Assembly: GCA_011053095.1 (NCBI GenBank) | Contig: DRHS01000002.1 | Span: 2,122 to 66,121 of the forward strand | Source of the DNA: Bacteroides sp. | GTDB taxonomy: Bacteria > Bacteroidota > Bacteroidia > Bacteroidales > SM23-62 | Length of the DNA stretch: 64,000 bases | Direction: 5' to 3' | Shown: positions 8,531 through 48,460 of the stretch, one piece after another | Layout of the letters: each line of letters opens with the position of its first letter | Position numbering within the stretch: the stretch's first letter is position 1 | Made by a program: the position numbers and the translations under genes | Notes under the pieces: generated by a model | Databases searched by the model: none | Seen by the model: the letters and a program-made list of their open reading frames with translations, nothing else | What the model was told of the DNA's origin: nothing

Positions 8531-9802
8531 TTAGAACAATGAATCTACGGATCTGTACTCATTCACTGCTTCCAGCATTGCAATGATGTTTTGTATTGGC
8601 ACATTGCTCTGAATATTATGTACAGGATTAAACACATATCCACCATCACCATTAAAAATTTCAATGTTTTTTCTCACTTCATTTTTTACTTCGGACGGCG
8701 TTCCAAACGGCAATGTTTTTTGTGTATCTATTCCCCCTCCCCAGAAAACAATATCTTGCCCAAATTCTTTTTTAAGCTGTACCGGATCCATCCCAGTTGC
8801 TGAAATCTGAACAGGATTTAATATATCCCATCCCGCCTCAATAAAATCAGGAATCAATTCAATAATAGCTCCACAGGAATGAGTAAATGTTTTCCAATTG
8901 GTTAGTTCATGAATTTTATCATTCAGTATTTTCTGATATGGCTTGAATAATTCACGGTAAGATTCGATAGAACTGAACAGTCCGGTTTGGGTTCCGAAAT
9001 CTGTGCCACTGAGAAATACTACCTGAACGCGGTCCCCCATAGCATCAGCTAAAAGTTCAATATTTTTCAGTGCAATTTCACATTGATTCTCAAATATTTT
9101 ATGGATATATTCCGGTCTTGTCAACAAGGACATATACCATTCCGTTATATCACGAACGCCTTTGGGGTTTTTTAACCAGGGAGCTGGTACTAGTGCTATA
9201 TCACCAAATGCCATGCCTGGTAATGTTGCATATATTCCAAGATCAGTCTCTTCAAATAATTTTTTAGATAATTGTTCATAGTATACAAGATCATCTGGCG
9301 ATAGTATCTCAAATTCTTCAAAATTATCAGAAGGATTTAAATTTAAGTCATCAATGGGTAGTTGTCTTGGTAGAGCGTCAAAGAAGAAACTATCCCTGGG
9401 CATTTTAGCACATGGGGGTAAAGTAGTATCACCTTCAGGATACATGTAGATTGCTTCTGTTTCATCCTTAGTGTAATTAAATTTTTCGGGAACCAGACAA
9501 TCAACGCCTCTCATTGAAAATGGTTTCCAGCCTTCATTCCTAAAACCGAACATATTACCCGGGGTAGAAATTCCTGTAACGTCCAATTGCAGAGCATTGA
9601 TTAGTTGGAGGTCAATTTCTCCAAGCATCTGATATGGTTCAATAACTTTAACCTTGTAGTCAGGGTCGGCGATAATTCTTTGTCTCAAATTATGAGCTGC
9701 CAAAATACCCATTCCTGTTTGAGCTCCAGCACCAAGGTCAACGCATAATTGATCTGGCATTCTATGGTTAATTGTTGCTAATAATCTCTCTCTTGAATTC
9801 AT
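8531..9802 (-). CDS. URO-D superfamily protein (uroporphyrinogen decarboxylase / MtaA-like fold), function unknown, not HemE
   Basis: 423 aa with no signal peptide. N-terminus MNSRERLLATINHRMPDQLCVD is shared in pattern with the three paralogues below. Central THSCG motif at nt 8870-8881. It lacks the HemE RQAGR motif. Its ATG (9802-9800) overlaps the upstream GH2 stop codon (9804-9802) by 1 nt. Confidence 0.75.
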   Translation of the reverse strand: MNSRERLLATINHRMPDQLCVDLGAGAQTGMGILAAHNLRQRIIADPDYKVKVIEPYQMLGEIDLQLINALQLDVTGISTPGNMFGFRNEGWKPFSMRGVDCLVPEKFNYTKDETEAIYMYPEGDTTLPPCAKMPRDSFFFDALPRQLPIDDLNLNPSDNFEEFEILSPDDLVYYEQLSKKLFEETDLGIYATLPGMAFGDIALVPAPWLKNPKGVRDITEWYMSLLTRPEYIHKIFENQCEIALKNIELLADAMGDRVQVVFLSGTDFGTQTGLFSSIESYRELFKPYQKILNDKIHELTNWKTFTHSCGAIIELIPDFIEAGWDILNPVQISATGMDPVQLKKEFGQDIVFWGGGIDTQKTLPFGTPSEVKNEVRKNIEIFNGDGGYVFNPVHNIQSNVPIQNIIAMLEAVNEYRSVDSLF

Positions 9803-12672: not shown

Positions 12673-12795
12673 AATGTTGAACAAGGAATTAGATTTAATA
12701 TCTGATTTGTAACAAATATAAATGTATATGACAAGTCAGATTAGGATAGATTTACCATGTATTATGTTAAATCGGGCGAATTGTATAATATGCCT

Positions 12796-15700
12796 TTATT
12801 CAATGATCGATAGTTTGGCGAATTCATTCTTATATCCATAGTCTACTGAAATTATATAGAAGCCTCTCTTCAGCTGGGATGTATTAAGAATTACTTGCTC
12901 AGAGGTAACTTTTTTATTTATCAGGATCTTTCCGGTCATATCTATAAGGCTGACACCTACGGCTGATTCTCCGACAAATTCAACAATTGCCCTATCCGTC
13001 GCGGGATTGGGATAAAGTTTGAAGGAGGGTTTTTCCAGCAGGTCTTTTTCCTCTCTGTCGATAACAGCAGTAGTATTGGTAAGCTCTCCCACCAGTGTAA
13101 CAATTGAAAATCCTGGCATCAGGAAGGGTGCACTTGCATCTGCTTCCCCATAAGCCTTGAGATTCTCCTCTTCTGATGTTACATAGGGAATTAACTTGTC
13201 CAATGTCAGATGTGAAGGCAGAGTACTCAGATCGAAGCTGATATTCTGGGGATTTTTATCATAGTTGATTGCAACGATGATAATTTTCGTTGAATCTTTG
13301 TCCATATATGCAGAAAGGAACTGTTCGTAAGCAGCACCAACGGTACTTGCGCCATCAGAACGTTCCACTTCAAAACGCTGGGATCCGGGTCGGACGAAAC
13401 GGCTGTAATTTCCAAGTGTCCAAAGGGTCCTGGTGACCCAGAAGCTTCCATCGGTATGCGTTGCGTCATCCGGATCCGGATAAAAGTTCATCAGGCCAAA
13501 GCGGTATTCGTGGGTCTGGTAGACCGCATTAACAAGACTTGTCCACCAGTCCCATCCAGTGGCGTTTCCTTCAGTCAGGTCGATATGGATAATTCTTGCT
13601 GTCCACAGGGAATATTCAATGGGTGTCACATTATCCCTTCCTTCCTCGTAATCAGCTCCAAGCAGGCTGTATTCTGTCTGCCAGAAAGACAATGATGAAT
13701 CAAGGGAATTGATCTTGTTCAGTAACTTTTGCCTATGACTGACGGCAGTGGAAACATCCGGATTGGACCAGTAAGAGTGGCCGGCAACGTATTTTGACAT
13801 ACTGGGAAGATCGCCTACATAATCCTGGCTGGCTGGATTCCAGAAGGCATTTATCTGGTCTGAAGTGGCCGGATCACCCAGATTAGTTGAGTGAAGCACC
13901 TGTAGATGCCCAGCCTCGGGGATCAGGATCTTTGAATTGACACCATGCTCGGTAAATTTTGCATCAATGGCCCTTGCAAGATTTGCAATTTCACTATTTG
14001 TTGCATAGGATCCGGATTGTACTGCACCACCATGTGCATACGACCATGCCCACTGAGGCTCATTAACCGGGCTTATAACTTCAAAAGGAGTGCCGTTATC
14101 CTGGAAATGTCTGGCAATTTTGGCAAGGTATTCTGCGTAGTCAACATACTTGTCGCCTGCCAGGTTATACCCAATGGTAGTATCGTGGGCAAAAGAATAA
14201 CCATTTTTGGTCATATGATAGGGCGGGGTTGTAGCCCATCCCGTCAGATATTCCACTCCTGCATTTAAAGCCCAATCCCTGAACCAGTCCGAACCTGGCT
14301 GTTTTGTAAAATCATAGGATCCATCTGCGAGCATAAAGCTCGGTGTTTCTTGCAGCCATGCACTGGAATGAAAACCGGAATCGTCCATATATGCCGATCC
14401 GTCCCCGATATGGTATCTCCAGTTGGATAGTCCAATTCCTTTGGGGCTCCCATCGGGATACATTTCCTGGCTGAACAGGAGCATTGCTATTGAATCACGC
14501 TTGACATCCGGCCATTTGGCAATCCACTGGGTAACCTCTCCGTCAGAGGCTCCGAAATGATGAATTTTCTGCCTGGGTTCATCAAATTTTACCGTGAATG
14601 TCATGTCCTCTGTAGCCACTATTTTGGCTGAATTTCTGCCGGATACATTTCCCTGCTGGTCCTTAGCCCTGACAGACAAATTGTATTCAGAGGAGGAAAG
14701 AAGTCTCAGCTTCATGGCCTCCAAATCGGAAACTGCAATAATTCTCTCACCATCATATATATCATAGGAGCTTACCGCAATATTATCACTTGAAGCAGTC
14801 CATGCAATGATTGCTGATTTAGCATCCACCTTGCCGACAAGCAGTTCGCCAGGATCTGTTGGTGCAACGGTATCGGTCTTCTCATATTCAGTATCCGGAT
14901 TAAATCCCCAGTCCGATGTGAAGATGAACTTGTCTACTTTGACATTTGCTGCACCGGGCGCAATGTTTATGGAATGATAACCCGGGGCCAATGACGGCGA
15001 TTTGTACAGGTTCAACCATTGCCAGCCTTGTGTCATGTGTACGCTGTCAAGCGCTGAATAAGTATCCTGATTGTCTGCCTTTACAAAGAATGGTGTTGCA
15101 ATATCGGCATCAATATTCATGTATGCCCATAGGCTGTAGGTACCTCCTCCGTCAACATATCCATAAAGAACTGATTCATCATCCATAGCTATCTCAGCAG
15201 AAGCTCCATTCCAGAAACCGTATGTGGTATCACCGTCTGATGCAGTACTCCAGTCTCCAAATGTATAGTCCTCCAGTTCAAATACATAAGGGTCAGTATT
15301 GGGACGAATAGGAGAGGTGTCATTTGCAATTGCAAAAATCTGTTCCCCTGTAAGGATCTCTTCCCATATAGCAATGTCATCGTACTTTCCATTTATGGTT
15401 CTGTAGACCCTTCCTTCCTCAATACTGGTACCGAAATAGAATTTCACAAGGTCCATTTCTGAAAGCAAAGATTCCGTAGACCCTGCAAAAGACCGTGCCC
15501 CGTCCAGATATCCTATAACATCACCTTCATTGTAGGTGAATGCCAGGTGTACCCATTTATCAGATGGTAAGGGATTAACATCTTCTATGACCGTCCAGGG
15601 TGGATTGGTTACCAGTCCATAGTTACTTCCTGCCCTTGGAGAAAGATAAAAATGTGAGGTTCCATCGGTATTGTCCCACTCAAATATTTCCTGCCACCAT

Positions 15701-16674
15701 TCTTCAAACTCCGAATCCCAGTAGAACCATGTTGAAAATGTAAAGACATCTTCCGTAACCATGGGTTGTTGTGCAAGCATGTAGGCCGTATCAAGGTGAT
15801 GCATGACAGCCACAGTTCCACCACGTTCAGGAACCCTTTCAAAGCTTATATTTTTCAGGTCCAGCATATTGTCTCCTATGGAATCATTCCCGTTCCCGTC
15901 AAGCGGGAACCAGACAGTTGCTTTGGAGTACAGAGTTGCCTTGTCAATAACCTTAAGAGGTTTATTCTCCTTTGACAATTCTTTGACAGTTGCAGCATCC
16001 AGCGCCTTATGAAAGAATTTCAGGTCATCCATTTTCCCATCATGTGGAAAATTCCTTGCCAGGTCACCACCACCGCCATTAAGGAAAAAGAAGGTGTCGA
16101 CTGCAACTTCGCTGGGAAGGTTCTGGACAGATCCTTCTGCATACATCTCACCATCCAGATAGACTGTCATGAATGTATCCTTTTGGGTAAGAGCAATATG
16201 GTGCCATTTTAAGTCAGGCAGCTCTGGTTCGGCGGTGATCCATTCCCATGCGTCCCCGTAGAAGATTACCCCGTAATTAATTCCCCAGAGGTTGGGTGAC
16301 ATATAGATGTATTTTCCTTCCATAGGATGCCCGGCCTTAGTATTGTTAAACTCAAAAATCTGCTTCCAGTCCCCCTGTGTACCCTCATAAAAATACCAGC
16401 AGGAGACTGTATACTCATCCTGACCTGGAGGCATCATGGCTGACATGGCATACATGTATCCCGCAGAATCTTTTGCCACCTCGGCAACATAGCCCTTCAG
16501 AGAATCCCAGACTACATTCACATCAACCATTCCAAGATTGACATTACCCATACTGTCAACACCACTTTCTTCGAAAGCATAATAGGCAAACAGACTGTCA
16601 GCACCCTGGGCGTTGATCAGGTTCATACCTGCTGTTAGCAGGTATAATAGAATGAGAGTAAAGAATCGGTTCAT
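12796..16674 (-). CDS. secreted multidomain glycanase: 2 LamG-like (Laminin_G_3) modules + CBM-like module + FN3 + GH30-like catalytic domain + T9SS C-terminal sorting domain
   Basis: - Signal peptide: MNRFFTLILLYLLTAGMNLINAQ.
- LamG_3-type terminal strands: KMDDLKFFHKALDAATVKEL and KYDDIAIWEEILTGEQIFAI.
- FN3: AIIAWTASSDNIAVSSYDIY...YNLSVRAKDQQGNVS.
- GH30-type motifs: HHFGASD, SPVNEPQW, FWQTEYS.
- C-terminal KLYPNPATDRAIVEF...FYIISV matches type-A T9SS CTDs. Confidence 0.85.
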   Translation of the reverse strand: MNRFFTLILLYLLTAGMNLINAQGADSLFAYYAFEESGVDSMGNVNLGMVDVNVVWDSLKGYVAEVAKDSAGYMYAMSAMMPPGQDEYTVSCWYFYEGTQGDWKQIFEFNNTKAGHPMEGKYIYMSPNLWGINYGVIFYGDAWEWITAEPELPDLKWHHIALTQKDTFMTVYLDGEMYAEGSVQNLPSEVAVDTFFFLNGGGGDLARNFPHDGKMDDLKFFHKALDAATVKELSKENKPLKVIDKATLYSKATVWFPLDGNGNDSIGDNMLDLKNISFERVPERGGTVAVMHHLDTAYMLAQQPMVTEDVFTFSTWFYWDSEFEEWWQEIFEWDNTDGTSHFYLSPRAGSNYGLVTNPPWTVIEDVNPLPSDKWVHLAFTYNEGDVIGYLDGARSFAGSTESLLSEMDLVKFYFGTSIEEGRVYRTINGKYDDIAIWEEILTGEQIFAIANDTSPIRPNTDPYVFELEDYTFGDWSTASDGDTTYGFWNGASAEIAMDDESVLYGYVDGGGTYSLWAYMNIDADIATPFFVKADNQDTYSALDSVHMTQGWQWLNLYKSPSLAPGYHSINIAPGAANVKVDKFIFTSDWGFNPDTEYEKTDTVAPTDPGELLVGKVDAKSAIIAWTASSDNIAVSSYDIYDGERIIAVSDLEAMKLRLLSSSEYNLSVRAKDQQGNVSGRNSAKIVATEDMTFTVKFDEPRQKIHHFGASDGEVTQWIAKWPDVKRDSIAMLLFSQEMYPDGSPKGIGLSNWRYHIGDGSAYMDDSGFHSSAWLQETPSFMLADGSYDFTKQPGSDWFRDWALNAGVEYLTGWATTPPYHMTKNGYSFAHDTTIGYNLAGDKYVDYAEYLAKIARHFQDNGTPFEVISPVNEPQWAWSYAHGGAVQSGSYATNSEIANLARAIDAKFTEHGVNSKILIPEAGHLQVLHSTNLGDPATSDQINAFWNPASQDYVGDLPSMSKYVAGHSYWSNPDVSTAVSHRQKLLNKINSLDSSLSFWQTEYSLLGADYEEGRDNVTPIEYSLWTARIIHIDLTEGNATGWDWWTSLVNAVYQTHEYRFGLMNFYPDPDDATHTDGSFWVTRTLWTLGNYSRFVRPGSQRFEVERSDGASTVGAAYEQFLSAYMDKDSTKIIIVAINYDKNPQNISFDLSTLPSHLTLDKLIPYVTSEEENLKAYGEADASAPFLMPGFSIVTLVGELTNTTAVIDREEKDLLEKPSFKLYPNPATDRAIVEFVGESAVGVSLIDMTGKILINKKVTSEQVILNTSQLKRGFYIISVDYGYKNEFAKLSIIE

Positions 16675-16744
16675 AAGTTTAAGTTTTTGAGATTTATTTA
16701 ATGGATTTGAATTATTTAGTAAATGCCGGGTTAAGTATATATTA

Positions 16745-18139
16745 TTAACCTATCAATTCTTTTTCTATGGTTTCGAGTGATTTTTGCTTTGTTTCGATTA
16801 GTCTTGATCGTATAAAGATGAATCCTGCTACACAAACTAATCCGAATATCCAGAAAGAACCCGATGCTCCCAGGGCTTTGTTCAGGAAAGGAAAAGTATA
16901 TACGAGTATAAAACTTGCTGCCCAAAGTGAGACAGTAGCAACTGCCAGTGCAGCGCCGCGGACCCGATTCGGGAATATTTCGGATAAAACCACCCAGGTA
17001 ATTGGTGCAATTGACATTGCATAACATGCAATTGCGAGCAATACAACAATCAGTACTGGTAATCCATGGAATTCAAAATAATAAAAGGCTCCCATGACGG
17101 CATAAATGCCTGCAAGTCCAGCAGATCCAATCATCATCAGTGCTTTACGGCCAATCTTATCAACTGTATATATGGCCACAAAGGTAAATACCAGGTTGAC
17201 GCTGCCGGTGACTACAATATTGAATAGGATGTCTGAGACTCCATAGCCAGCAGCTGAAAAAATTTCCTCGGCATAATTGAATATAATGTTGATTCCGCAC
17301 CATTGCTGGAAGGCTGCAAGCACAATCCCAATTATTAAAACCTTTGACATACCACCCGAGAACAATGCTTTGAAGCTGACACCACCGGTATTGGCTTTAA
17401 GTGAATTCTCGATTTCGACGATCTCCCGTTCGGCATATTCTTTGCCTCCCAAACGCTTCAATATGGAAAGTACACGATCATATTTATTTCGTGTGGCAAG
17501 CCAGCGTGGACTTTCGGGGACGAACCACATAAGGGTAAAGAAAAGTGAAGCTGGAACAAGTTCTGCCCAGAACATCCACCTCCAGCCGCTTTGTCCATTC
17601 CATGATTGAAGTATATCAGCAGCATTTGCAGTTTCTGGAACAGGCTCTGCAATCAACCAGTTAACAATCTGTGCTGCCAGTATCCCGATTACAATGGTTA
17701 GCTGGTTTATGGAGACAAAACCTCCCCTGAATCGTGCAGGAGTTACTTCAGCTATGTACATTGGTGATAGATTGGAGGCCAGGCCAATGCCTATACCACC
17801 TAATATCCTGAATATGACAAAGGAGTTAAAATGATTGGATGCACCAGTTCCCAGAGCAGACAGGATAAATAAAAATGCTGCCAGGATTAACAGCCTTTTT
17901 CTTCCATATCGGTCGCTGAGAAATCCGGATAATATGGCGCCAAGAAGGCAACCTGTAAGGGCACAACTCATGGCCCAACCCTGCAACCTGGGAAGGTCAG
18001 CAATCTCAAAGAATTTCTCATAAAAGGGTTTCGCTCCCCCGATCACCACCCAGTCATAGCCAAACAGTAACCCACCCATGGCTGAAACAAGAGAAATACC
18101 AAAAATATATCGGTAGTTAAATTTATTTTGTAGTTCCAT
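16745..18139 (-). CDS. MFS sugar porter (sugar:H+ symporter, XylE/GalP-like)
   Basis: 464 aa. Motifs: GGLLFGYD, GRKRLL, PESPRWL, and the C-terminal PETKQKSLETIE (PETKG-type) motif. Twelve hydrophobic segments. Its start overlaps the upstream GH30 gene by 17 nt. Confidence 0.9.
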   Translation of the reverse strand: MELQNKFNYRYIFGISLVSAMGGLLFGYDWVVIGGAKPFYEKFFEIADLPRLQGWAMSCALTGCLLGAILSGFLSDRYGRKRLLILAAFLFILSALGTGASNHFNSFVIFRILGGIGIGLASNLSPMYIAEVTPARFRGGFVSINQLTIVIGILAAQIVNWLIAEPVPETANAADILQSWNGQSGWRWMFWAELVPASLFFTLMWFVPESPRWLATRNKYDRVLSILKRLGGKEYAEREIVEIENSLKANTGGVSFKALFSGGMSKVLIIGIVLAAFQQWCGINIIFNYAEEIFSAAGYGVSDILFNIVVTGSVNLVFTFVAIYTVDKIGRKALMMIGSAGLAGIYAVMGAFYYFEFHGLPVLIVVLLAIACYAMSIAPITWVVLSEIFPNRVRGAALAVATVSLWAASFILVYTFPFLNKALGASGSFWIFGLVCVAGFIFIRSRLIETKQKSLETIEKELIG

Positions 18140-19739
18140 GAGATAATATATTTTCTTCCATTAACAGAGTCAATACGGATCGGGCGGGTATGTTCAGAAG
18201 CTTTCCCCTTGTTTCTACATATTCCAGATTTTTGTCTTCACTGGTAATATAGGAGTGAAGGGAAAAATATTTTTCATTATCCGGAAGGTGCACACTTTTT
18301 TCTTCCCCGGAATAATTCACAAATACGATCACAATATCTTTTTTTACCGGGTCCCTGAATGCAGACACCATTAAATCGGTGGCTTGCTCTGTCAAGGAAA
18401 ATCTGTTTGCGAATTCGGCATTTATTCTATGCATGCCCGGACGAATGAAATGTGAATAATTCCCCAGTGCCCAGAGAATTTTAGAATCCCTTATTTCTCC
18501 ATCGTATTTCAAACTTTCATATAATTTATCGCGGGGACCAGTACTTCCCTGGTTCCCTTCTCCTGCATCAACATAGATTAATCCTCCTTTGAAATTCATG
18601 TGGGTCATAGCTGTCCAGAACTGCCAGGAGGAGGCATTTGCCAGGCTCAGATCATGATGTATTATCCTTGCAACGTACAATGCGGTATTTATCCCAAGAT
18701 CACGTCTCCACCCATTTCCTATGTCATCATTTTGCTGCAAAATGCAATACTCTGTCTGCCAGAAAGATATATCAGCATTGGTGTTACTTATTTTTTCAGT
18801 AATCCTCTTTCGTGTAAGGATCAGGGTATCCACCGGCCAGACACTATGGTAGCTATGGGAGGAAATAGCTTTTTCAACATTGGGGAGATTACCGAGGTAG
18901 GATGGGGATGAGGGAGAATAGAAGTAATTTATTTTATTACCGCGTGCTTTGTCATTGTTGAAATCACTGAATAGATATCTGTGGTCGCCGGCATCTCCAA
19001 TCAGCATTTTTGTGCTTAATTTTCTCTTTGAGAATTCACGATCAAGTTCCTTTATAAGCGTATAAAGTTCATCGTTAGAAGCGGGTGAGCCTTCTGCAAG
19101 ACCACCTGACCAGTCCCATTCCGGTTCGTTAAAGGGACTGAGATAGTCAAAGGGTGTACCCTCATCCTGGAAGTGTTGTAGAATATCTGCGAGGAAGGAA
19201 GCATATTCTGATATTTTTTCCGGTTGGATATTCATATGCAAGGTCTCCTCGGGTGCGGAAATATTCAGACCGTTTCGGGTCCACCAATAGGGTGGGGAAT
19301 AAACGATGGCTTTGTAATACTCCACCCCATATTCCCTGGCCTTATTCAAGAACCATTGCTGACCTTCCTGCTTACTCCAGTCCCAGTTTCCGTCAGCATC
19401 CCTGAAACAATCTGTTCTTCTCCAGTTCCAATGCATTCTGCTGCTGTCACCTAACTGGGCTCCTCCCGTGCCTATGTTAAATCTCCAAAGTGACAGGCCA
19501 ATCCCTGAGGGATTTCCATTTTCATCGAATTCTTTGCTGAAGAGCCACTCTGCCATTTTCTCTCTTTTTTCAAGAGGATAATTTTTTCCAAAAAATTGTG
19601 CTGCCCATGAATCAGAAGCTCCGAAACTATGCATGGTTTGATAATTGATATCAGGATCCAGGATAAGCTCAAGTTCAGCCTGCGCAGAAGATCTGTGCAG
19701 GGACAGGAGAGACAGTGATATAAGAAAAATAATGCGCAT
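18123..19739 (-). CDS. GH30-like glycoside hydrolase, periplasmic/secreted
   Basis: Signal peptide MRIIFLISLSLLSLHRSSAQA. Motifs: HSFGASDSWAAQF, GLSLWRFNIG, SPPYWWTRNG, SPFNEPEWDW (acid/base-type NEP) and FWQTEYC (nucleophile-type). A C-terminal beta-sandwich-like tail is present. The subfamily cannot be assigned by eye. Confidence 0.75.
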   Translation of the reverse strand: MRIIFLISLSLLSLHRSSAQAELELILDPDINYQTMHSFGASDSWAAQFFGKNYPLEKREKMAEWLFSKEFDENGNPSGIGLSLWRFNIGTGGAQLGDSSRMHWNWRRTDCFRDADGNWDWSKQEGQQWFLNKAREYGVEYYKAIVYSPPYWWTRNGLNISAPEETLHMNIQPEKISEYASFLADILQHFQDEGTPFDYLSPFNEPEWDWSGGLAEGSPASNDELYTLIKELDREFSKRKLSTKMLIGDAGDHRYLFSDFNNDKARGNKINYFYSPSSPSYLGNLPNVEKAISSHSYHSVWPVDTLILTRKRITEKISNTNADISFWQTEYCILQQNDDIGNGWRRDLGINTALYVARIIHHDLSLANASSWQFWTAMTHMNFKGGLIYVDAGEGNQGSTGPRDKLYESLKYDGEIRDSKILWALGNYSHFIRPGMHRINAEFANRFSLTEQATDLMVSAFRDPVKKDIVIVFVNYSGEEKSVHLPDNEKYFSLHSYITSEDKNLEYVETRGKLLNIPARSVLTLLMEENILSHGTTK

Positions 19740-19749
19740 AATTTTCTTC

Positions 19750-21342
19750 TTAATTATCCAGAATTATTGTAGATATTGATCTTGCGGGTATAATGAGTTC
19801 ATCCAGGTTCACGATGGATTTTTTGAGATTGCTGATATTGGAGGTAACATACATCTCTGCAATTGAGCTTGCTGCCTCATTCATTATCCTGCTCTTAAGT
19901 TTAACTTGACGGTCAGTTGTGGTCTGGTTAACGATAACCAATACGAGGGGACCGGATAGGGTATCTTTAAAAGCTGAGACCATGAGCTCCTTTGATTGCT
20001 CAACTAGAGTGCCCGATCCCTCAATTTCAGCCTGGACACGGATCATACCCGGCCGGATGAAACGGGAATAGTTACCAAGCGCCCAAAGCAATTTCGTATC
20101 ACGTACGTAACCGTCATATTTCAAAGATTCATTTAATTCACTTCTTGGGTCTCTAACCCCATTGCTCTTACCATCATCGAGATGAATCAGTCCATCTTTA
20201 TAATCAAACTGGGACAGGGCCGTCCACCATTGCCAACTGGCGGCATTGGCTATACAAAGATCATTATGAATAATTCTGGCAACAAAAAGAGCAGTTGGCA
20301 TACCAAGGTCACGTTTTCTTCCTCCCTTTATTTCATCATTTTTCTCAAGGATGCAATATTCTGTCTGCCAGTATGCAAGGTCCGGATCTGTTTGTTGAAT
20401 CTTTGCGGCAAGCTTTTGCCGAGTTTCAACCTGGTCTTCAATTGGCCAGACCGTAAAATAGCTGTGACCTGAAATGGTATTACTGATGTTAGGAAGATCA
20501 CCGATGTACATAGCTGAGCTGGGATTAAAAAATACTTCCACCTGGTTATCTCTTGAATCGTTATCTACTGTGTCTGTCAGGTGTCTGATAGTGGCAGCTT
20601 CCCCAATTACCAACTGGGTGTGTAGTTTTCTTTCATTTAGTTCAGCTGACAAATACTTAATAAATCTGTACAGGTCTTCATTTTGAGCTGATGTGCCTTC
20701 CTGGGAATTCTTATGCCAGGACCATTGTGGTTCATTAAAAGGACTCAGGTAATTGAATTCGAGTCCCTCATCCCCAAAATGTTCCATCACCTCTGCAAGG
20801 TAAGCAGCATAATCTTCAAGGTGTGCGGGTTTTATATTCATACCCATGTCGTCTTTGATGGAATGACCCATTCCATTTTTAGACCAAAAAACTGGAGGAG
20901 CGATTGTAAAAGCAAGGAACTTACTGACCCCTCTTTCCTTTGCAGTTCTGAGAAACCTTTGTTGTCCACTGTGCTTCGACCAGTCATAATTTCCATCTGC
21001 ATCAAGGAAACATTCTGCGCGTCTCCATTCATTAACTATGCCTGAAGATTCTCCCATTTCACTGGTACCGGCTCCAAGATAGAATCGCCAGATTGATAAC
21101 CCTATACCCAGCGGATTACCATCCGGATCAATATTCTGACTGAATAAAAGGTCAGCTATTTTTTCGGTTTTTTCCTCAGGCCAGTAGGCTCCTGTAAATT
21201 GGATCCTCCAGGCATCGGAGGCTCCGAATCCTACTATAGTCTGATATCTTATTTGTTCGTCAATTATAACGGTTACAAGATTATCTTCAGCAATGCAAAC
21301 TGCAGATAACTGGCACAGTATCAGAAAAATCAGGGTTTTCAT
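19750..21342 (-). CDS. GH30-like glycoside hydrolase, tandem paralogue of 18123-19739
   Basis: Signal peptide MKTLIFLILCQLSAVCIA. Motifs: GFGASDAWRIQF, GLSIWRFYLG, SPFNEPQWSW, YWQTEYC. It is collinear with the neighbouring GH30 along the full length. Confidence 0.75.
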   Translation of the reverse strand: MKTLIFLILCQLSAVCIAEDNLVTVIIDEQIRYQTIVGFGASDAWRIQFTGAYWPEEKTEKIADLLFSQNIDPDGNPLGIGLSIWRFYLGAGTSEMGESSGIVNEWRRAECFLDADGNYDWSKHSGQQRFLRTAKERGVSKFLAFTIAPPVFWSKNGMGHSIKDDMGMNIKPAHLEDYAAYLAEVMEHFGDEGLEFNYLSPFNEPQWSWHKNSQEGTSAQNEDLYRFIKYLSAELNERKLHTQLVIGEAATIRHLTDTVDNDSRDNQVEVFFNPSSAMYIGDLPNISNTISGHSYFTVWPIEDQVETRQKLAAKIQQTDPDLAYWQTEYCILEKNDEIKGGRKRDLGMPTALFVARIIHNDLCIANAASWQWWTALSQFDYKDGLIHLDDGKSNGVRDPRSELNESLKYDGYVRDTKLLWALGNYSRFIRPGMIRVQAEIEGSGTLVEQSKELMVSAFKDTLSGPLVLVIVNQTTTDRQVKLKSRIMNEAASSIAEMYVTSNISNLKKSIVNLDELIIPARSISTIILDN

Positions 21343-21368
21343 TAGAATTAAATAAGGAAAGAAATTTT

Positions 21369-21410
21369 TAAAAAAAGAGGCTGCCCGGTTTATGGATCCA
21401 GGCAGCCTCT
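21369..21410 (-). terminator. rho-independent terminator after the giant LamG-GH30 gene
   Basis: A 10-bp GC-rich stem, AGAGGCTGCC (21376-21385) pairing with GGCAGCCTCT (21401-21410). It is followed on the minus strand by a run of 8 T (plus-strand A-run 21369-21376). It sits 35 nt after the stop codon at 21445-21447. Confidence 0.65.
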
Positions 21411-21444
21411 TAATGTTTAATTAACGTCTACAAGCTGAATGATC

Positions 21445-24400
21445 TTACTCAATTATTGATAATTTCTGGAATTCAGTTTTGTAACCGTATTCAACTGCTA
21501 TGATATAGAATCCTCTATTCAGGTTCGATGTATTAAGAATTACCTGTCCATCGGTAACACTCTTATAAATGAGGATCTTTCCGGTCATATCAATAAGCTT
21601 TACAGCATCGGCAGGATCTCCGGCAAACTCAACAATTGCATGATCCATTGCAGGGTTAGGATAGAGCTTGAAGGAAGCCTCTTCCAGAAGGACCTTTTCA
21701 CCCCTGTCATCAATAGCTGTAGTATTGGTAAGATCTCCAACCAAAGTGACAATGGATAATCCTGGCATCAGGAAGGGTGCAGTTGCATCCACTTTTGCAT
21801 ATGCCTTCAGATTATCGCTCTCAGATGTTATATATGGAGTTAACTTATCCATTAACAGATGAGCAGGCAGATTGCTTACATCGAAAGTCAGATTCTGAGG
21901 ATTTCTGTTATAGTTAACAGCAACAATAATAATTTTAGTTGAATCTTCATCTACGTAAGCTGATACAAACTGATCATAAGCAGAGCCAACAATACTGGCA
22001 CCATCTGAGCGTTCAACATTAAGGCGCTTACTCCCAGGGCGTACAAATCGACTGAAGTTACCGAGCGCCCAAAGGTTAGGCATTACCTCAAATGTTCCAT
22101 CTGTATGGGATGCATCGTCCGGTTCAGGATACCAGCTTAATAAACCATAACGATAATCCATAGTAGGTGAAGGCACCCTGGTTAAAGCAGTCCACCAATC
22201 CCAACCAGTTGCACCTCCTTCCGTTACATCTATATGGATAATACGAGCCATCCACAAAGAATATTCGATAGGCTTCAGAGTGATTCGTCCATCCTGGAAT
22301 GCACCACTAAGAAGACTATATTCGGTCTGCCAAAAGGAAAGATCAGAATCCACATCATTGATTTTGTCCAAAAGGCTTTTACGGTTTGCCACGGTAGTGA
22401 TTACATCTGGATTCGAATAGTAGCTATGTCCTGCCACGTATTTTGACAGATTGGGTAAATCTCCAATATAATCAGGACTTGTGGGATCCCAGAAGGCATA
22501 AACCTGGTTTGAAGTAGCAGGATCCCCAGCATCGGGAGAATGTAGCTTATCGATCATCCCAGCTTCAGGAATTAGAATCTTGGCTGTGACTCCAAACTCA
22601 GTGAATTTAGCATCTATGGCTTTCGCAACGGCTGCAACTTCACTATTGGTTGCATAGGATCCTGACTGGACCGCATTCCCATGAGAAAAGGCCCAAGACC
22701 ATTGTGGTTCATTGATCGGGCTTATCACCTCGAAAGGTGTCCCATCGTCCTGGAATTGTTTGGCAATCTTCGCTAAATATTCCCCATAGTCATCATACTT
22801 GTCAACTGCTAGGTTGTACCCGATGGTTGAATCATGCCTATATGGGAAACCGTTCTTGGTCATATGAGGGGGAGGAGAAGTGGTCCACCCTGTAAGATAC
22901 TCAACTCCCGCTGCTATTGCCCTGTCCTTAAACCAGTCAGATTCAGCCTGTTTAGTAAAGTCATAGGTCCCGTCTGCATTCATAAAACTAGAGATCTCGC
23001 GGAACCAGTAATCTGGATGAAATCCTCCATCTGACATGTCCGCAGATCCTTCACCGATTTGGTATCTCCAGTTTGACAGCCCTATCCCTTTGGGACTACC
23101 ATCGGGATACATTTCCTGGCTGAAAAACAACATGGCAATGGAATCCCGTTTTGCATCCGGCCAATTCGCTACCCAACGGATAGCCCAGGCGTCTGAAGCT
23201 CCGAAGTGGTGTATGGTCTGTTCTGGTTCATCAAATTTCACAGTAATTGTGAGATCTTCAGTTGTTACATCCTTTGCGGCATTTCTTCCGGACACATTTC
23301 CCTGCTGGTCTTTGGCTCGTACGGACAGGCTGTAATCGCTGGATGCCATTAGCTTCAGTTTCAAGGCTTCTACATCGGAAATGGCCACAATTCTGTCACC
23401 ATCGTATATATCATAGGTAGTTACCTTTACATTGTCAGTTGATGCTGACCAGGCCATTGTTGCAGAGGAGGCATCAACATTGTTAATAAGCAGTTCTCCA
23501 GGATCTGTCGGAGCTTCGGTGTCGGTAATCTCAAACTCGGTATTGGGATCAAAGCCCCAATCAGATGTATAGATGAGCTTATCTATCATGAAATTTGCAG
23601 CCCCGGGAGCAATTCTAATTGTATGATTACCCCCTGGTAGTGAAGGTGTTTTGAACAGTTGTACCCATTGCCATCCCATTGTTGGATGCACAGTGTCAAG
23701 TGCTGTGTAGAAACCATCATTACCATCCCAACTCAAAAAGAGAGGATTGGCGACGTCCACATCTGTTTTAATACGTCCCCACAGTTTAAAAGTTCCTCCT
23801 CCATTGGCATATCCATATAGAATGGATTCATCATGCATGGCCACATCAGCAGAAGTACCGCCCCAGAAACCATAGGAAGTATCTCCATCGGTTCCTTTAC
23901 TCCAGTCGCCAAAAGTGTAATCCTCCAGTTCGATAATATAAGGATCCACATCCGGTCGAACAGGAAATGTATCGTTGGCGATGGCAAAAATTTGCTCTGC
24001 TGTCAGGATTTCTTCCCATAATGCTATATCATCATATTTACCGGATATGGGACGATAAATTCTGCCAGGTTCCAGGCTCGTACCAAAATAGAATTTGACC
24101 AGGTCCAACTCCGAAAGTAGTGATCCTGTCTCTCCTTGGAAAGCCTGAGCACCATCAAGATATCCAATAACATACCCTTCATCGTAGGAGAATGCTAGAT
24201 GGATCCATTTGTCATGGGGCAAGGTCTTAACATCTGTAGTGGCGGTCCAAGGAGGATGAGTCACAAGTCCGTAGTTAGCACCGGCTCTGGGAGATAGATA
24301 TATATGAGCAGTCCCGTCAATATTGTCCCACTCAAAGATTTCCTGCCAATATTCATCGTACTGTGAATCCCAATAGAACCATGTGGCAAAAGTAAAGACG

Positions 24401-26658
24401 TCCTCTGTTATCAGTGGTTGCTGAGCAAGCATGTAGGAGGTATCAAGGTGGCTTAAGGAAGCAACCAAGCCGCCACGTTCTATTTCCTTTACAAAGGTAA
24501 CGTCGGACAAATCAAGGATATGGTCGCCGATATTATCATTGCCATCTCCATCAAGCGGAAACCAGACAGTAGCCTTCTCATACAATTTTCTCTTATCAAT
24601 AAATTTCAATGGTTTATTCTCCTGAGAAAGTTTCTTTACCGTTTCAGCGTCCAGGGCTTTATGGAAAAATTTCAGATCATCCATTTTTGCATAATGGGGA
24701 AAATTCCTGTCAGCACCTGCAGCTCCTACTCCGGCTCCTCCATTGAGGAAGAAGAAAGTATCAACGGCCATCTCACTTGGAAGTAACTGAACCTTGCTTT
24801 CAGCATATACCTCACCATTCAAATAAACTGTAACCACGGTATCTAATTGGGTTACAGCAAGATGATACCAGGTTGAGTCAGGGAGAATGGGCTCTTCAGA
24901 GATCCATTCCCAGCTTGTTCCTCCTGAAATATATCCATAATTTGATCCCCATAGATTTGGAGATAGGTAGTAATAGCTGTCTTTCTGTGGATGCGGATCC
25001 TTGGTATTATTAAATTCGAATATTTGTTTCCAGTCTCCATAATTATTTTCATAATAATACCAGCAGGAAACAGTGTATTCATCTTGGTCTTCAGGCATCA
25101 AAGCTGACATCCCGTACATATAACCAGATGAATCCTGGACAATCTCAGCCACAAAACCCTTCACAGGATCCCAGACAACTTCAACATCGACCATTCCAAG
25201 ATTTACATTTCCCATACTGTCTACTCCACTTTCCTCGAAAGGATAGTAGGCAAAAAGACTGTCAGGCGCTGGAGGAGGAGGAGGAATATACACCAAATCA
25301 GGCCGGTCTTCGTTTGCCAGTACCGCGACAGCCACAGAATCAAGGGCTTTGTGGAAAATTTTCAGGTTGTCCATCTTTGCATCATGCGGGAATTTCCTCC
25401 CGTCCGGCCAACCTCCATTGAAAAAGAAAAATGTGTCCACTGCCAAATCACTGGGCATAGTGGTGGTTGTATCCTTCAAAAATTCCACGCCATCAAGGTA
25501 AACCGTAACCACGGTGTCCTTCATTGTCAAAGCAAGATGCCTCCATTCTTTTTCTGGCAGTAGGGGTTCCTTGACTATATAGTCCCAGTTATTTCCATAG
25601 TATACCAATCCAAGACTGTTGCCACCCAAATTAGGTCCCATATAAAAATGTTTCTGATAATGTGGATGCGCGGGTTTAGAATTGGCCCACTCTAAAATTT
25701 GTTTCCAATCTCCGGAATTGTTCTCGTAGAAGTACCAGTAGGAGACGGTGAACTCATCCTGATCATCGGGCATTAACGGGGACATAGCATACATGTAACC
25801 CGAAGAGTCCTGAACGACTTCGGCGACCATGCCTTTGAGCGAGTCATTAACGATCTTTACATCCACAAAACCCAGGTCGACATTTCCCATACTGTCTACA
25901 CCGCTTTCTTCAAATGCATAATAAGCATAAAGGCTGTGAGTCCATGGCTCATCTTCCTTTGCCAGGATTGCAACGGTTGAGGGTTCCAGTGCCTTATGGA
26001 ATATCTTCAGGTGGTCCATTTTTGCATCGTGGGGAGATTTCCTCCCGTCCGGCCAACCTCCGTTAAAAAAGAAAAATGTATCCACCGCCAATTCGCTGGG
26101 CATGGTGGTGGCTGTATCCTTAAAAAATTCCACCCCATCAAGGTAAACCGTAACCACGGTGTCTTTCATTGTCATAGCAATATGCCTCCATTCTTTTTCT
26201 GGAAGTTTGGGTTCCTTGACTAGATAGTCCCAGTTATTTCCATAGTATACCAATCCAAGGCTGTTGCCACCCAAATTAGGTCCCATATAAAAATGTTTCT
26301 GATAATGAGGATGCGCAGGCTTAGAATTGGCCCACTCTAAAATTTGTTTCCAATCTCCAGAATTGTCCTCGTAGAAATACCAAAAGGATACGGTGAATTC
26401 ATCCTGATCCTCGGGCATTAACGTGGACATAGCATACATGTAACCCGAAGAGTCTTGAACGACTTCGGCGACCATGCCTTTGAGTGAGTCCCTTACGATC
26501 TTAACATCTACAAAACCGAGGTCAACATTGCCCATGCTGTCTGTTCCAGTCTCTTCAAAGGAATAGAAAGCAAAAAGACTATCAGCGCCCTGGGCACTGA
26601 TATTGTTTATGCCTGCCAATAGCAGGCATATCCAGGTAAAAAGTAAGATTCGCTTCAT
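21445..26658 (-). CDS. giant secreted glycanase: 4 LamG-like modules (3 type A + 1 type B) + CBM-like module + FN3 + GH30-like catalytic domain + T9SS C-terminal sorting domain
   Basis: Collinear paralogue of 12796-16674 with two extra N-terminal LamG modules. Motifs: KMDHLKIFHKAL, KMDNLKIFHKAL, KMDDLKFFHKAL, KYDDIALWEEIL; a PPPPPAP linker; FN3; HHFGASDAW, SPINEPQW, FWQTEYS. The C-terminal KLYPNPAMDHAIVEF...FYIIAV is a T9SS CTD. The track ORF extends to 26766. The ATG at 26658 gives MKRILLFTWICLLLAGINNISAQ, a proper signal peptide that aligns with the paralogue. Confidence 0.85.
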   Translation of the reverse strand: MKRILLFTWICLLLAGINNISAQGADSLFAFYSFEETGTDSMGNVDLGFVDVKIVRDSLKGMVAEVVQDSSGYMYAMSTLMPEDQDEFTVSFWYFYEDNSGDWKQILEWANSKPAHPHYQKHFYMGPNLGGNSLGLVYYGNNWDYLVKEPKLPEKEWRHIAMTMKDTVVTVYLDGVEFFKDTATTMPSELAVDTFFFFNGGWPDGRKSPHDAKMDHLKIFHKALEPSTVAILAKEDEPWTHSLYAYYAFEESGVDSMGNVDLGFVDVKIVNDSLKGMVAEVVQDSSGYMYAMSPLMPDDQDEFTVSYWYFYENNSGDWKQILEWANSKPAHPHYQKHFYMGPNLGGNSLGLVYYGNNWDYIVKEPLLPEKEWRHLALTMKDTVVTVYLDGVEFLKDTTTTMPSDLAVDTFFFFNGGWPDGRKFPHDAKMDNLKIFHKALDSVAVAVLANEDRPDLVYIPPPPPAPDSLFAYYPFEESGVDSMGNVNLGMVDVEVVWDPVKGFVAEIVQDSSGYMYGMSALMPEDQDEYTVSCWYYYENNYGDWKQIFEFNNTKDPHPQKDSYYYLSPNLWGSNYGYISGGTSWEWISEEPILPDSTWYHLAVTQLDTVVTVYLNGEVYAESKVQLLPSEMAVDTFFFLNGGAGVGAAGADRNFPHYAKMDDLKFFHKALDAETVKKLSQENKPLKFIDKRKLYEKATVWFPLDGDGNDNIGDHILDLSDVTFVKEIERGGLVASLSHLDTSYMLAQQPLITEDVFTFATWFYWDSQYDEYWQEIFEWDNIDGTAHIYLSPRAGANYGLVTHPPWTATTDVKTLPHDKWIHLAFSYDEGYVIGYLDGAQAFQGETGSLLSELDLVKFYFGTSLEPGRIYRPISGKYDDIALWEEILTAEQIFAIANDTFPVRPDVDPYIIELEDYTFGDWSKGTDGDTSYGFWGGTSADVAMHDESILYGYANGGGTFKLWGRIKTDVDVANPLFLSWDGNDGFYTALDTVHPTMGWQWVQLFKTPSLPGGNHTIRIAPGAANFMIDKLIYTSDWGFDPNTEFEITDTEAPTDPGELLINNVDASSATMAWSASTDNVKVTTYDIYDGDRIVAISDVEALKLKLMASSDYSLSVRAKDQQGNVSGRNAAKDVTTEDLTITVKFDEPEQTIHHFGASDAWAIRWVANWPDAKRDSIAMLFFSQEMYPDGSPKGIGLSNWRYQIGEGSADMSDGGFHPDYWFREISSFMNADGTYDFTKQAESDWFKDRAIAAGVEYLTGWTTSPPPHMTKNGFPYRHDSTIGYNLAVDKYDDYGEYLAKIAKQFQDDGTPFEVISPINEPQWSWAFSHGNAVQSGSYATNSEVAAVAKAIDAKFTEFGVTAKILIPEAGMIDKLHSPDAGDPATSNQVYAFWDPTSPDYIGDLPNLSKYVAGHSYYSNPDVITTVANRKSLLDKINDVDSDLSFWQTEYSLLSGAFQDGRITLKPIEYSLWMARIIHIDVTEGGATGWDWWTALTRVPSPTMDYRYGLLSWYPEPDDASHTDGTFEVMPNLWALGNFSRFVRPGSKRLNVERSDGASIVGSAYDQFVSAYVDEDSTKIIIVAVNYNRNPQNLTFDVSNLPAHLLMDKLTPYITSESDNLKAYAKVDATAPFLMPGLSIVTLVGDLTNTTAIDDRGEKVLLEEASFKLYPNPAMDHAIVEFAGDPADAVKLIDMTGKILIYKSVTDGQVILNTSNLNRGFYIIAVEYGYKTEFQKLSIIE
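25294..26583 (-). repeat. intragenic tandem duplication, 2 x 645 bp (one LamG module each)
   Basis: Copy 1 is 25939-26583 and copy 2 is 25294-25938. The DNA aligns base for base at a 645-nt offset (for example GGGTTCCTTGAC at 26209 vs 25564). My manual protein alignment shows about 29 mismatches in 215 positions. A third, more diverged copy follows at ~24590-25263. Confidence 0.85.
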
Positions 26659-26782
26659 TAAAATTGATTTTTGTGGTTTCAATTTCAATCGAAATGAAAC
26701 CGGTTTAAAAAATTGTTTAGAGGAAGGTCTTTTCATAGTTTTGATTTTAGTTAGGAGTATGTACATATTACTATTTTCAATA

Positions 26783-27868
26783 TTATTTGGAGAGTGTCAC
26801 AATGATCTCGCTTTTTGACTGGAATATCTCCTCTGAACCAGGTTGCTTGTAAAGCAGATGGTAGGTCAGGGGATTTGTAAAATCATTTGTCGAAACTCCG
26901 CTTTCCTGTGGTACATTGTCCACCATCACCTCAATACTATCATCCCATAAGCTAAAATCAGCTGCCAGGTTACTAAGATCAGTGACATGGTCTACTGTCA
27001 GTTCAATATAGAATTTATGATAGGTAAGAGGATCAACTAGGTAATTGGTCATATGATCGGCAATGTTTTCCGTGGAAACGGTCTTTCCTGCTATGGTAAA
27101 TGTCTTGAATTCAGGTATGAACATAAGTCCAACATCATACTCCCTTTTAGATCCGTCATCTGCGGTTACCAGATATGTTTTTGGGATAAGATTGCCGCTT
27201 TCGTCTACATGGTTTACATATTCTCCATTCCCAACCTGGGATCCGTCAACGGTAACTACAGCAACCTCTGAATCAAGTGTAATAATTGGAATAACAGGGA
27301 TTTCCGAAGCGCCGGTATAGGGAAGCTTTGTTGAAAGGTTAAATATACGGGCATACTGGTATAGATATACTTTGACAATCCCTTCATCCTGATAAATCGC
27401 ACCTTCCTGGCTGAAATCAAGGAAATCATTTGCACCGGAGAAATAGGCTCCTAAAGTGCCGAAATCCATTTTTTCAATGGTATTGCGGTTTTCAGATATG
27501 GATATGGATTTTTCATAAGTATCCCTGACGGTTTTTCCATCTCTGTGATCATAACCTGTTGCGATAAGCACAATATTGTAAGTTCCGGGTTTTCTGTAGG
27601 AGTGGATCAGTTCACCCTGTGGATTGGGACTTAAACCAATATCTCCTGCTGAAAGGCTATCATAATTATGTCCTTCATCCCCTGTAAAGAATGTGAAATA
27701 CTGGCCACCGCCTGTGATTTGAAGAGTAATCAGGTCAAGCACGCTTGCAGATTCAGGTTGAAGGGTGAAATCCGCTTTTGGCTGGATAAAATAATCGTCA
27801 TTCTCACACGCATTAAAGATGAGAATGGCAGGCAAAATCAAGCCTATAAATCTTTTCATTGCTTTCAT
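26783..27868 (-). CDS. surface lipoprotein downstream of susD; candidate surface glycan-binding protein with PKD-like N-terminal domain
   Basis: Lipoprotein signal MKAMKRFIGLILPAILIFNAC. PKD-like segment (FTLQPESA...GTYNIVLIATG). Its position immediately after susD (2-nt gap) is typical for SusE/F-type SGBPs. No catalytic motif was seen. Confidence 0.55.
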   Translation of the reverse strand: MKAMKRFIGLILPAILIFNACENDDYFIQPKADFTLQPESASVLDLITLQITGGGQYFTFFTGDEGHNYDSLSAGDIGLSPNPQGELIHSYRKPGTYNIVLIATGYDHRDGKTVRDTYEKSISISENRNTIEKMDFGTLGAYFSGANDFLDFSQEGAIYQDEGIVKVYLYQYARIFNLSTKLPYTGASEIPVIPIITLDSEVAVVTVDGSQVGNGEYVNHVDESGNLIPKTYLVTADDGSKREYDVGLMFIPEFKTFTIAGKTVSTENIADHMTNYLVDPLTYHKFYIELTVDHVTDLSNLAADFSLWDDSIEVMVDNVPQESGVSTNDFTNPLTYHLLYKQPGSEEIFQSKSEIIVTLSK

Positions 27869-29553: not shown

Positions 29554-29564
29554 TTTCTTCAACG

Positions 29565-32621: not shown

Positions 32622-32668
32622 ATTCAAAATATTTCAAAAGAATTACGGGCTGACCGCAACGATAGAAA

Positions 32669-40465: not shown

Positions 40466-40493
40466 TTAAATAGCTTTAATTATAAGTCGTATC

Positions 40494-41525: not shown

Positions 41526-41555
41526 TAACACAAACTATTAGCCTAAAAATCTATT

Positions 41556-42938: not shown

Positions 42939-42981
42939 AAATTTCATCAGATATTATGACAATCAATAAAATCCAAATATC

Positions 42982-48444: not shown

Positions 48445-48460
48445 TTAAAATATTCCTGCG

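Follow-up and report, generated by a model that had tools for sequence, protein, structure and literature searches.

The protein ChiA (Fjoh_4555) of Flavobacterium johnsoniae, reportedly described by Kharade and McBride in 2014, is a large multimodular hydrolase with non-catalytic binding modules and a type IX secretion system (T9SS) C-terminal domain (CTD). It is encoded in the chitin utilization locus (ChiUL); the T9SS secretes it as a soluble protein, and it is essential for the use of chitin (PMC5127042). The same locus contains SusC/SusD together with periplasmic enzymes, an inner-membrane transporter and a sensor. Large T9SS-linked carbohydrate-active enzymes (CAZymes) with modules of unknown function have also been described in rumen and soil Bacteroidota (PMC5831590). 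Those of Candidatus Paraporphyromonas polyenzymogenes (PMC5831590) and the cellulases of Cytophaga hutchinsonii carry a TIGR04183 CTD, carbohydrate-binding modules (CBMs) and modules of unknown function, and are described as working without archetypal polysaccharide utilization loci (PULs). Here we analyse a 64,000-nucleotide stretch of Bacteroides sp. DNA (the window; assembly GCA_011053095.1, contig DRHS01000002.1), in which SusC and SusD genes are followed on the same strand by the genes of two paralogous enzymes of 1292 aa (P0001) and 1737 aa (P0002). Both combine LamG modules with a domain of glycoside hydrolase (GH) family 30 and a T9SS CTD. We consider it likely that they are extracellular front-line glycanases of a SusC/SusD PUL that are exported by the T9SS and not anchored as lipoproteins.

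The module order of P0001 is signal peptide, LamG-A, LamG-B, a module with a CBM6/CBM35 fold, fibronectin type III (FN3), GH30 and T9SS CTD. P0002 has the same order, with three LamG-A modules (A1, A2 and A3) in place of one. This arrangement had been proposed in an earlier note made from the DNA letters and was recovered here by Pfam, NCBIfam and structure matches; the sizes and end coordinates given there agree with the open reading frames (ORFs) and the parallel signal peptides. Pfam places Laminin_G_3 in two stretches of P0001 and in four of P0002, and Glyco_hydr_30_2 and Por_Secre_tail in both proteins. The paralogues are collinear from the last LamG-A module through the C-terminus and, as had been anticipated, highly similar, with 897 of 1272 residues identical (71%) and five gaps. 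The longest ORF of P0002 covers 21445-26766 on the minus strand (1773 aa) and stays open for 36 codons (26659-26766) upstream of the likely start. A start at 26658 gives the N-terminus MKRILLF...NNISAQ, parallel to MNRFFTL...NLINAQ of P0001, and it was preferred because the resulting signal peptide parallels that of the paralogue. A public protein cluster carries a 1763-aa version of P0002. Database entries of this protein are probably extended wrongly at the N-terminus, which would mask its signal peptide.

Export by the T9SS is predicted from both ends of the proteins. Each begins with a Sec signal peptide that lacks a lipobox cysteine (MNRFFTLILLYLLTAGMNLINAQ/G and MKRILLFTWICLLLAGINNISAQ/G, read by eye from the sequence). 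At the C-terminus, TIGR04183 matches both proteins with 38.3 bits (cut-off 23), and the matches end at residue 1287 of P0001 and at residue 1770 of the longest P0002 frame, within five residues of the C-terminus in each case. PF18962 (Por_Secre_tail) scores 39 and 36 bits (cut-off 27), and 45 bits on the CTD alone. Both profiles are above their cut-offs, and this identifies the CTDs as type A T9SS signals; the earlier note had likewise read them as T9SS CTDs. The source genome is a metagenome-assembled genome (MAG) of 300 contigs that is 83% complete. It encodes GldK (561 bits), GldM (361 bits) and SprA (2754 bits) of the T9SS core, all above cut-offs; PorU and PorV lay outside this search. 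About 100 profile matches to type A CTDs were found in the genome, and a profile of our own returned 96 ORFs that end in such a domain. The three core components and the roughly 100 CTDs therefore indicate that the T9SS route exists in this organism and is heavily used. [quoted passage not shown] Nine of the 96 CTD ORFs, distributed over six loci, are located no more than 12 kb from one of these pairs. T9SS cargo beside PULs is not peculiar to the locus described here. Among the CTD ORFs near SusCD pairs, cargo with a glycoside hydrolase next to SusCD is encoded in this locus only. On contig C24 of the same genome (5040-7655), an 872-aa protein with the order sulfatase, F5/8 type C, CBM6 and CTD is encoded 287 nt from a SusCD pair. 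Compared with ChiA, a chitin-acting protein with two GH18 domains, each enzyme of our locus has one GH30_4-like domain, LamG modules and a CBM6/CBM35-fold module, and there are two paralogues. Unlike the ChiA locus, this one also encodes a third T9SS cargo, an ELWxxDGT-repeat protein. Moreover, secretion of ChiA is proven, whereas here it is predicted from the genes. In contrast to the systems of P. polyenzymogenes and C. hutchinsonii, the cargo is part of a SusCD locus. A SusCD locus that also encodes a multimodular enzyme secreted by the T9SS is already a published design, namely that of the F. johnsoniae ChiUL.

The catalytic domains were assigned to GH30 by PF14587 (Glyco_hydr_30_2), whose match takes in both the (beta/alpha)8 barrel and the beta-sandwich at its side. 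Of the two catalytic glutamates of the family, the acid/base is expected after strand 4 and the nucleophile after strand 7. In all four GH30 domains of the locus, two in the multimodular enzymes and two in stand-alone proteins, the acid/base motif NEP(Q/E)W is retained, as is the nucleophile motif WQTEY. P0001 and P0002 both have NEPQW, and the stand-alone copies have NEPQW or NEPEW. In P0001 the acid/base glutamate lies in VNEPQW and the nucleophile in WQTEYS. These residues, E872 and E1001, are invariant across nine homologues, and their positions agree with the GH30 clan GH-A geometry described for Sa16Gal30A (PMC13431644), a GH30_5 endo-beta-1,6-galactanase of Streptomyces avermitilis (PDB 24td). 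Sa16Gal30A is of the same family and has the same catalytic machinery. It differs from the enzymes here in giving a weak and partial match (E 4e-7, N-terminal half), in its subfamily and in having no accessory modules.

3CLW (B. fragilis BF1510) is, by a wide margin, the solved structure nearest to each of the four GH30 domains, with E-values of 2e-73 for P0001 (residues 698-1197) and 3e-104 for the full length of a stand-alone copy. 3CLW is an uncharacterised member of GH30_4 with a -1/-2 cleft that resembles the cleft of the GH30_5 beta-1,6-galactanase (PMC13431644). In contrast to P0001 and P0002, BF1510 is a single-domain protein without LamG, CBM, FN3 or CTD. Judged from this best PDB relative, and thus indirectly, the GH30 domains of the locus appear to be GH30_4-like. 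Identity between T9SS-borne and stand-alone domains is 36-37%, and between the two stand-alone copies 48%. The T9SS-borne domains lack a 12-13-residue loop that is present in the stand-alone proteins. This divergence and the loop would fit a split in which the T9SS enzymes act in endo mode outside the cell and the stand-alone enzymes in exo mode inside.

Subfamily GH30_4 comprises beta-fucosidases, GH30_5 beta-1,6-galactanases and GH30_11 beta-1,6-galactobiohydrolases (PMC11058611), all of which are galacto-configured specificities. Galactose-type functions are also found among the neighbouring genes, which encode a BT4151-like GH2, a second GH2-like protein, an aldose 1-epimerase, a GH59 protein, sulfatases and two porters of the major facilitator superfamily (MFS). 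Because of these neighbours and the galacto specificities of the nearest GH30 subfamilies, we tentatively propose a beta-linked galactose-type glycan, possibly sulfated, as the substrate, with somewhat less than even confidence. GH30 as a whole spans glucanases, xylanases, glucuronidases and others (PMC11058611), and the same architecture might instead act on a beta-1,6-glucan, a xylan or a glucuronide polymer, with the galactose-related neighbours serving side chains only. The uncharacterised state of 3CLW would leave room for this, as would weak matches to the NCBIfam models of XynC (43 bits, cut-off 650) and of the BT3312 beta-1,6-glucanase (21 bits, cut-off 700). Both matches are partial and far under the cut-offs, however, and the best relatives belong to group 2, GH30_4. 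The locus is also rich in galactose functions, and the trio of GH30, GH2 and MFS porter recurs in related loci. On these grounds, a non-galactan substrate seems somewhat less likely to us. Our searches of the literature on GH30_4 and on PULs that combine GH30 with GH59 turned up no characterised bacterial system.

The N-terminal modules, which the earlier note had taken to be lectin-like, were cut out and scored singly against PF13385, which has a gathering score of 27.6 bits. All six LamG modules pass (56.0-67.7 bits) and are thus Laminin_G_3 above the curated cut-off. The LamG-A module of P0001 is 73% identical to A3 of P0002; A1 and A2 are 88% identical to each other and 57-61% identical to A3 and to the P0001 module, and LamG-A and LamG-B share 27% identity. 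In a three-module model made with AlphaFold2 (AF2), the LamG-B segment has block-mean pLDDT values of mostly 74-89. Its best structural match is domain 4 of AbnA (5hon), a GH43 arabinanase of Geobacillus stearothermophilus (template modelling (TM) score 0.79 on the target, root mean square deviation (rmsd) 2.5 A). Like LamG-B, this is a jelly-roll lectin-like domain on an extracellular glycanase, and it was crystallised with its oligosaccharide, an arabinan ligand. Unlike LamG-B, to which it is 21% identical, it comes from a Gram-positive host and is combined with another catalytic family and another ligand. By analogy, the LamG modules would bind glycans. A first alignment for structure prediction had placed the LamG-B of homologues onto LamG-A and was discarded. 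Multi-domain Foldseek matches to clostridial neurotoxin binding domains (rmsd about 19 A) reflect the generic jelly-roll and were given no functional meaning.

An exhaustive HMMER search with LamG-A returned 5578 matches at E <= 1e-3, and the best of those from outside the window are 35-41% identical. With word-based searches, the LamG-A region and the CBM-like region each returned only the paralogue in the window. The HMMER search places LamG-A in the very large Laminin_G_3 family, as one of its diverged members. Its nearest outside relatives sit in proteins composed of LamG, Big_2 and CTD that have no catalytic domain. LamG-A has no close relatives on other enzymes, and this would suit a role of the arrays as rigid spacers or protein-docking modules that position the enzyme on the surface or at SusCD, where one or three copies would set length or geometry only. 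The Pro-rich linker after LamG-A2 points the same way, and binding could then be done by the separate CBM6/CBM35-fold module. Nevertheless, LamG-B superposes well on a domain that was crystallised with an arabinan ligand, and Laminin_G_3 is common on secreted CAZymes, with GH16 and acetyl xylan esterase proteins among the matches. The strong purifying selection on the modules (dN/dS 0.13) is also above the usual need of a plain spacer, and we regard a pure spacer or docking function as improbable. If the LamG modules bind glycans, binding by the arrays might be multivalent, and the difference between one and three LamG-A copies might tune avidity or reach, as the earlier note proposed; this is conjecture.

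The 145-residue unit between LamG-B and FN3 matches no Pfam family, and when isolated it gives no CBM_6 or CBM_35 match at E <= 0.1. No PDB match by sequence was obtained with a profile of six homologues. The region was poorly predicted in the three-module model (pLDDT 27-44 in its first half), and that part of the model was not used. Folded alone (AF2, six-sequence alignment), the unit forms a beta-sandwich with a pLDDT of 77.8 and a pTM of 0.76. The top 20 Foldseek matches of this model are nearly all CBM6 or CBM35 structures (TM 0.52-0.70, E 1e-4 to 1e-3), with 5fui, 2cdp and 4qb2 as the best (TM 0.6-0.7). The match is of moderate strength, and we describe the unit as an orphan with a predicted CBM6/CBM35 fold. 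It is not filed in either family because the family sequence profiles are not matched. The designation as CBM-like made earlier is therefore kept for the modelled fold and not for the sequence. The FN3 module is a putative one. In a phmmer search it aligned with FnIII of Bacillus chitinase A1 (1k85, E 8e-10), and its Pfam fn3 score is under the cut-off (17.5 bits, cut-off 25). PF00041 is precomputed for two homologues.

To describe the history of the modules, substitution rates (nonsynonymous, dN; synonymous, dS) were compared. Between P0001 and P0002, dS is saturated, dN is 0.17-0.23 and dN/dS is 0.07-0.14 where computable. LamG-A1 and LamG-A2 differ by a dN of 0.076 and a dS of 0.58 (dN/dS 0.13). 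They are 86% identical at the DNA level, and the LamG-A array is therefore not an assembly artefact of identical repeats. A1 differs from A3 and from the LamG-A of P0001 by a dN of 0.30 each, and A3 differs from the latter by 0.19. Because 0.30 exceeds 0.19, a duplication of LamG-A appears to have preceded the duplication of the gene. If rates were similar, the common ancestor of both genes probably had at least two LamG-A modules, of which the shorter paralogue probably lost one, while the longer paralogue probably duplicated its first LamG-A later. A maximum-likelihood tree of the LamG modules did not resolve the key node, and this order is taken from dN alone. What the rates do establish is the great age of every copy and purifying selection on each; the array is therefore not a recent accident. 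The identical module order, the 71% identity and the single gene in every relative examined would also be seen if one paralogue were redundant or decaying after an accidental duplication, without functional partition. Both frames are intact, however, the catalytic residues are kept, and the saturated dS, the dN of about 0.2 and the low dN/dS in every module indicate long-term purifying selection. Redundancy or decay of one copy is very improbable in view of these data.

For two front-line glycanases of this kind, the following course can be proposed. Each protein would cross the inner membrane by the Sec pathway through its N-terminal signal peptide. The type A CTD would then be recognised by the T9SS, which would carry the protein across the outer membrane for release or C-terminal attachment to the surface. 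In the attached form, GH30 would be positioned next to the cell, with the LamG and CBM6/CBM35-fold modules of the N-terminal part pointing outward and gripping the polymer. The retaining GH30 domain would cut a beta-linked, possibly galactose-configured glycan to oligosaccharides, which would be bound by SusD and the neighbouring lipoprotein and imported by SusC. In the periplasm, the oligosaccharides would be trimmed by both stand-alone GH30 proteins and by the beta-galactosidase-like GH2 enzyme, and the MFS porter would take up the monosaccharide. That the locus serves selfish uptake is conjecture.

Several points weigh against this interpretation or parts of it. LamG folds serve as spacers or protein-binding modules as well, and no ligand-binding residues were identified in the LamG modules. 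The CBM-like module fails the CBM6 and CBM35 sequence models, and its fold match is of moderate strength (E about 1e-4). The substrate is assigned through guilt by association. 3CLW is uncharacterised, and the sole cited activity of GH30_4 is that of an exo beta-fucosidase. Co-transcription would have to be read from gene spacing alone, and the source genome is an incomplete MAG (83% complete).

Outside the window, about eight proteins in a collection of 5.8 billion resemble the whole enzyme. These whole-length relatives have about 1090 aa, are 41% identical and consist of LamG-B, CBM-fold module, FN3, GH30 and CTD, without LamG-A. A close-relative scan of species genomes with P0001 gave no match; a later profile scan of species genomes gave the best 78 loci, of which the nearest come from Bacteroidales MAGs. 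The loci of the relatives are syntenic, in the order CTD protein, SusC, SusD, lipoprotein, stand-alone GH30, T9SS enzyme and then GH2, often with an MFS porter. The core of this order, from the CTD repeat protein through SusC, SusD, lipoprotein and an optional GH30 to the enzyme with LamG, GH30 and CTD, is kept in at least six other loci. Identities to the window in the syntenic loci are 30-37% for the homologue of the ELWxxDGT protein, 36-38% for SusC and 32-38% for SusD. From its sequence and position, the ELWxxDGT CTD protein looks like an integral, uncharacterised and T9SS-exported part of the PUL family, and it may be a glycan-binding propeller.

Variants of the enzyme were also found. 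In a Candidatus Barnesiella MAG, the cassette recurs with an enzyme of two LamG modules, GH30 and CTD, without the CBM-fold module and FN3, and a Saccharicrinis genome encodes an enzyme of one LamG module and GH30 with a weak CTD match. In the best 78 species-level loci, 81 GH30 ORFs are stand-alone and 8 carry LamG modules. An approximately 950-aa BT4151-like GH2 (35-44% identical) accompanies GH30 in many of these loci. The MFS porter beside GH30 is 59-62% identical to that of the window in 7 loci and 41-46% identical in 6 others. None of 14 same-genus genomes searched contains the enzyme or a GH30 of this type, and matches there are confined to segments of CTD or FN3. Within its lineage the locus is thus sporadic, which is consistent with horizontal gain or repeated loss. 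Two such T9SS genes in one locus were seen in no relative examined. Among the examined loci of the PUL family, the two T9SS paralogues and the LamG-A modules occur in the window only. In a related Bacteroidales MAG (L001 16729-22699, L002 12783-18753), a homologous PUL is followed by apiosidase-family and apionate-lactonase-like genes. This hints that the locus or its neighbour in that MAG handles apiose-containing plant glycans.

What is new in comparison with the published design is thus a matter of detail: an uncharacterised conserved PUL family that combines a GH30_4-like T9SS enzyme with a T9SS repeat protein, and within it the presence of two copies of the enzyme at this locus, the LamG-A modules, which we saw in no other locus, and the orphan CBM6/CBM35-fold module. 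The current view of PUL and T9SS function is unchanged by the locus. Its value is incremental, as a clean and conserved case of T9SS enzymes that form the outer arm of a SusCD system in Bacteroidales-type bacteria, beyond Flavobacteriia. The GH30_4-like clade and the two orphan types of binding module are targets for enzyme discovery, e.g. on beta-galactans and sulfated galactans. More far-reaching is the idea that the window holds the most elaborate member of an uncharacterised PUL family for a beta-galactan-type glycan (e.g. beta-1,6-galactan, possibly sulfated) without a described Bacteroidota system. This would provide the first bacterial polysaccharide activity in GH30_4, and LamG-A and the orphan CBM-fold module would be the first members of new carbohydrate-binding families, in which avidity would be set by copy number. 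Taken as a whole, we think this rather unlikely.

The positions of the genes and modules are given in Table 1. Between 8.5 and 36.4 kb, the window is a single minus-strand gene array. Two stand-alone GH30 genes and the MFS porter gene separate P0002 from P0001; these are the same genes that had been named in the earlier note, now matched by Pfam. Adjacent susC-like and susD-like genes are accompanied by CAZyme genes on the same strand, which is the composition of a PUL. Ten same-strand genes follow SusC/SusD, with intergenic gaps of -31 to 124 nt from SusC down, and terminator-like sites were found in no intergenic gap of the array. The close packing and the lack of such sites suggest that the array is co-transcribed. 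With respect to the earlier placement of the enzymes inside a SusCD operon, the position of SusC/SusD directly upstream on the same strand stands, and the operon status is a reading of the packing only. A sigma-70 promoter scan performed at chance level, with a model ill-suited to Bacteroidota, and was rejected.

Table 1. Genes of the locus and modules of the two multimodular enzymes, with positions in the window
Feature	Position	Strand	Remarks
Sulfatase	34869-36443	-	First in transcription order
ELWxxDGT-repeat protein with T9SS CTD, 654 aa	32708-34672	-	TIGR04534, 219 bits; third T9SS cargo at the locus
SusC-like TonB-dependent transporter	29565-32627	-	Upstream of both multimodular enzymes
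SusD-like lipoprotein	27871-29595	-	Overlaps SusC gene by 31 nt
Lipoprotein, 361 aa, in surface glycan-binding protein (SGBP) position after SusD	26783-27868	-	Cys then ENDD
P0002 (paralogue 2), larger multimodular enzyme, 1737 aa	21445-26658	-	
P0002 LamG-A1	25939-26583	-	PF13385 67.7 bits
P0002 LamG-A2, then Pro-rich linker PPPPPAP	25264-25938	-	PF13385 57.7 bits
P0002 LamG-A3	24592-25263	-	Counterpart of the single P0001 LamG-A
P0002 LamG-B	23962-24591	-	PF13385 56 bits
P0002 CBM6/CBM35-fold module	23524-23961	-	61% identical to P0001 module
P0002 GH30	21709-23253	-	PF14587 E 1.4e-92; catalytic motifs kept
P0002 T9SS CTD	21448-21681	-	TIGR04183/PF18962
Stand-alone GH30, 530 aa, signal peptide	19750-21342	-	Full-length match to 3CLW; predicted periplasmic
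Stand-alone GH30, 538 aa, signal peptide	18123-19739	-	48% identical to other stand-alone GH30
MFS sugar porter (Sugar_tr)	16745-18139	-	PF00083 E 9e-113; predicted inner-membrane monosaccharide import
P0001 (paralogue 1), smaller multimodular enzyme, 1292 aa	12796-16674	-	
P0001 LamG-A (residues 24-245)	15940-16605	-	PF13385 59.6 bits alone
P0001 LamG-B (residues 246-455)	15310-15939	-	PF13385 62.3 bits
P0001 orphan CBM6/CBM35-fold module (residues 456-600)	14875-15309	-	Fold of predicted model
P0001 FN3 (about residues 598-690)	14605-14883	-	PDB 1k85 match; model pLDDT about 80
P0001 GH30 barrel and beta-sandwich (about residues 691-1205)	13060-14604	-	PF14587 E 5e-93
P0001 type A T9SS CTD	12799-13032	-	PF18962 45.1 bits alone
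GH2 lipoprotein	9802-12684	-	1074 bits on BT4151 exo-beta-1,4-galactosidase model, below the equivalog cut-off of 1500
URO-D-like gene	8531-9802	-	Last gene of array
Hybrid two-component sensor	44293-48444	+	On divergent arm

Some further observations concern the neighbouring genes. A CTD homologue of the 654-aa ELWxxDGT protein lies directly upstream of SusC in six related loci. The 361-aa lipoprotein has no Pfam or NCBIfam match; over approximately 170 N-terminal residues it shares about 30% identity with the protein at the same position in related loci. Two further sulfatases are encoded in the neighbourhood besides that of the array. A divergent arm on the plus strand (36647-52512) carries genes for a 1272-aa GH2-like protein, an aldose 1-epimerase, a second MFS sugar porter, a sulfatase and a GH59 protein. 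Together, the minus-strand array and this arm make up a bidirectional locus of about 54 kb with many galactose-related functions. Both arms contain a gene of the URO-D/MtaA fold without a signal peptide (8531-9802 on the minus strand and 42982-44154 on the plus strand), one of which overlaps the stop of the GH2 gene.

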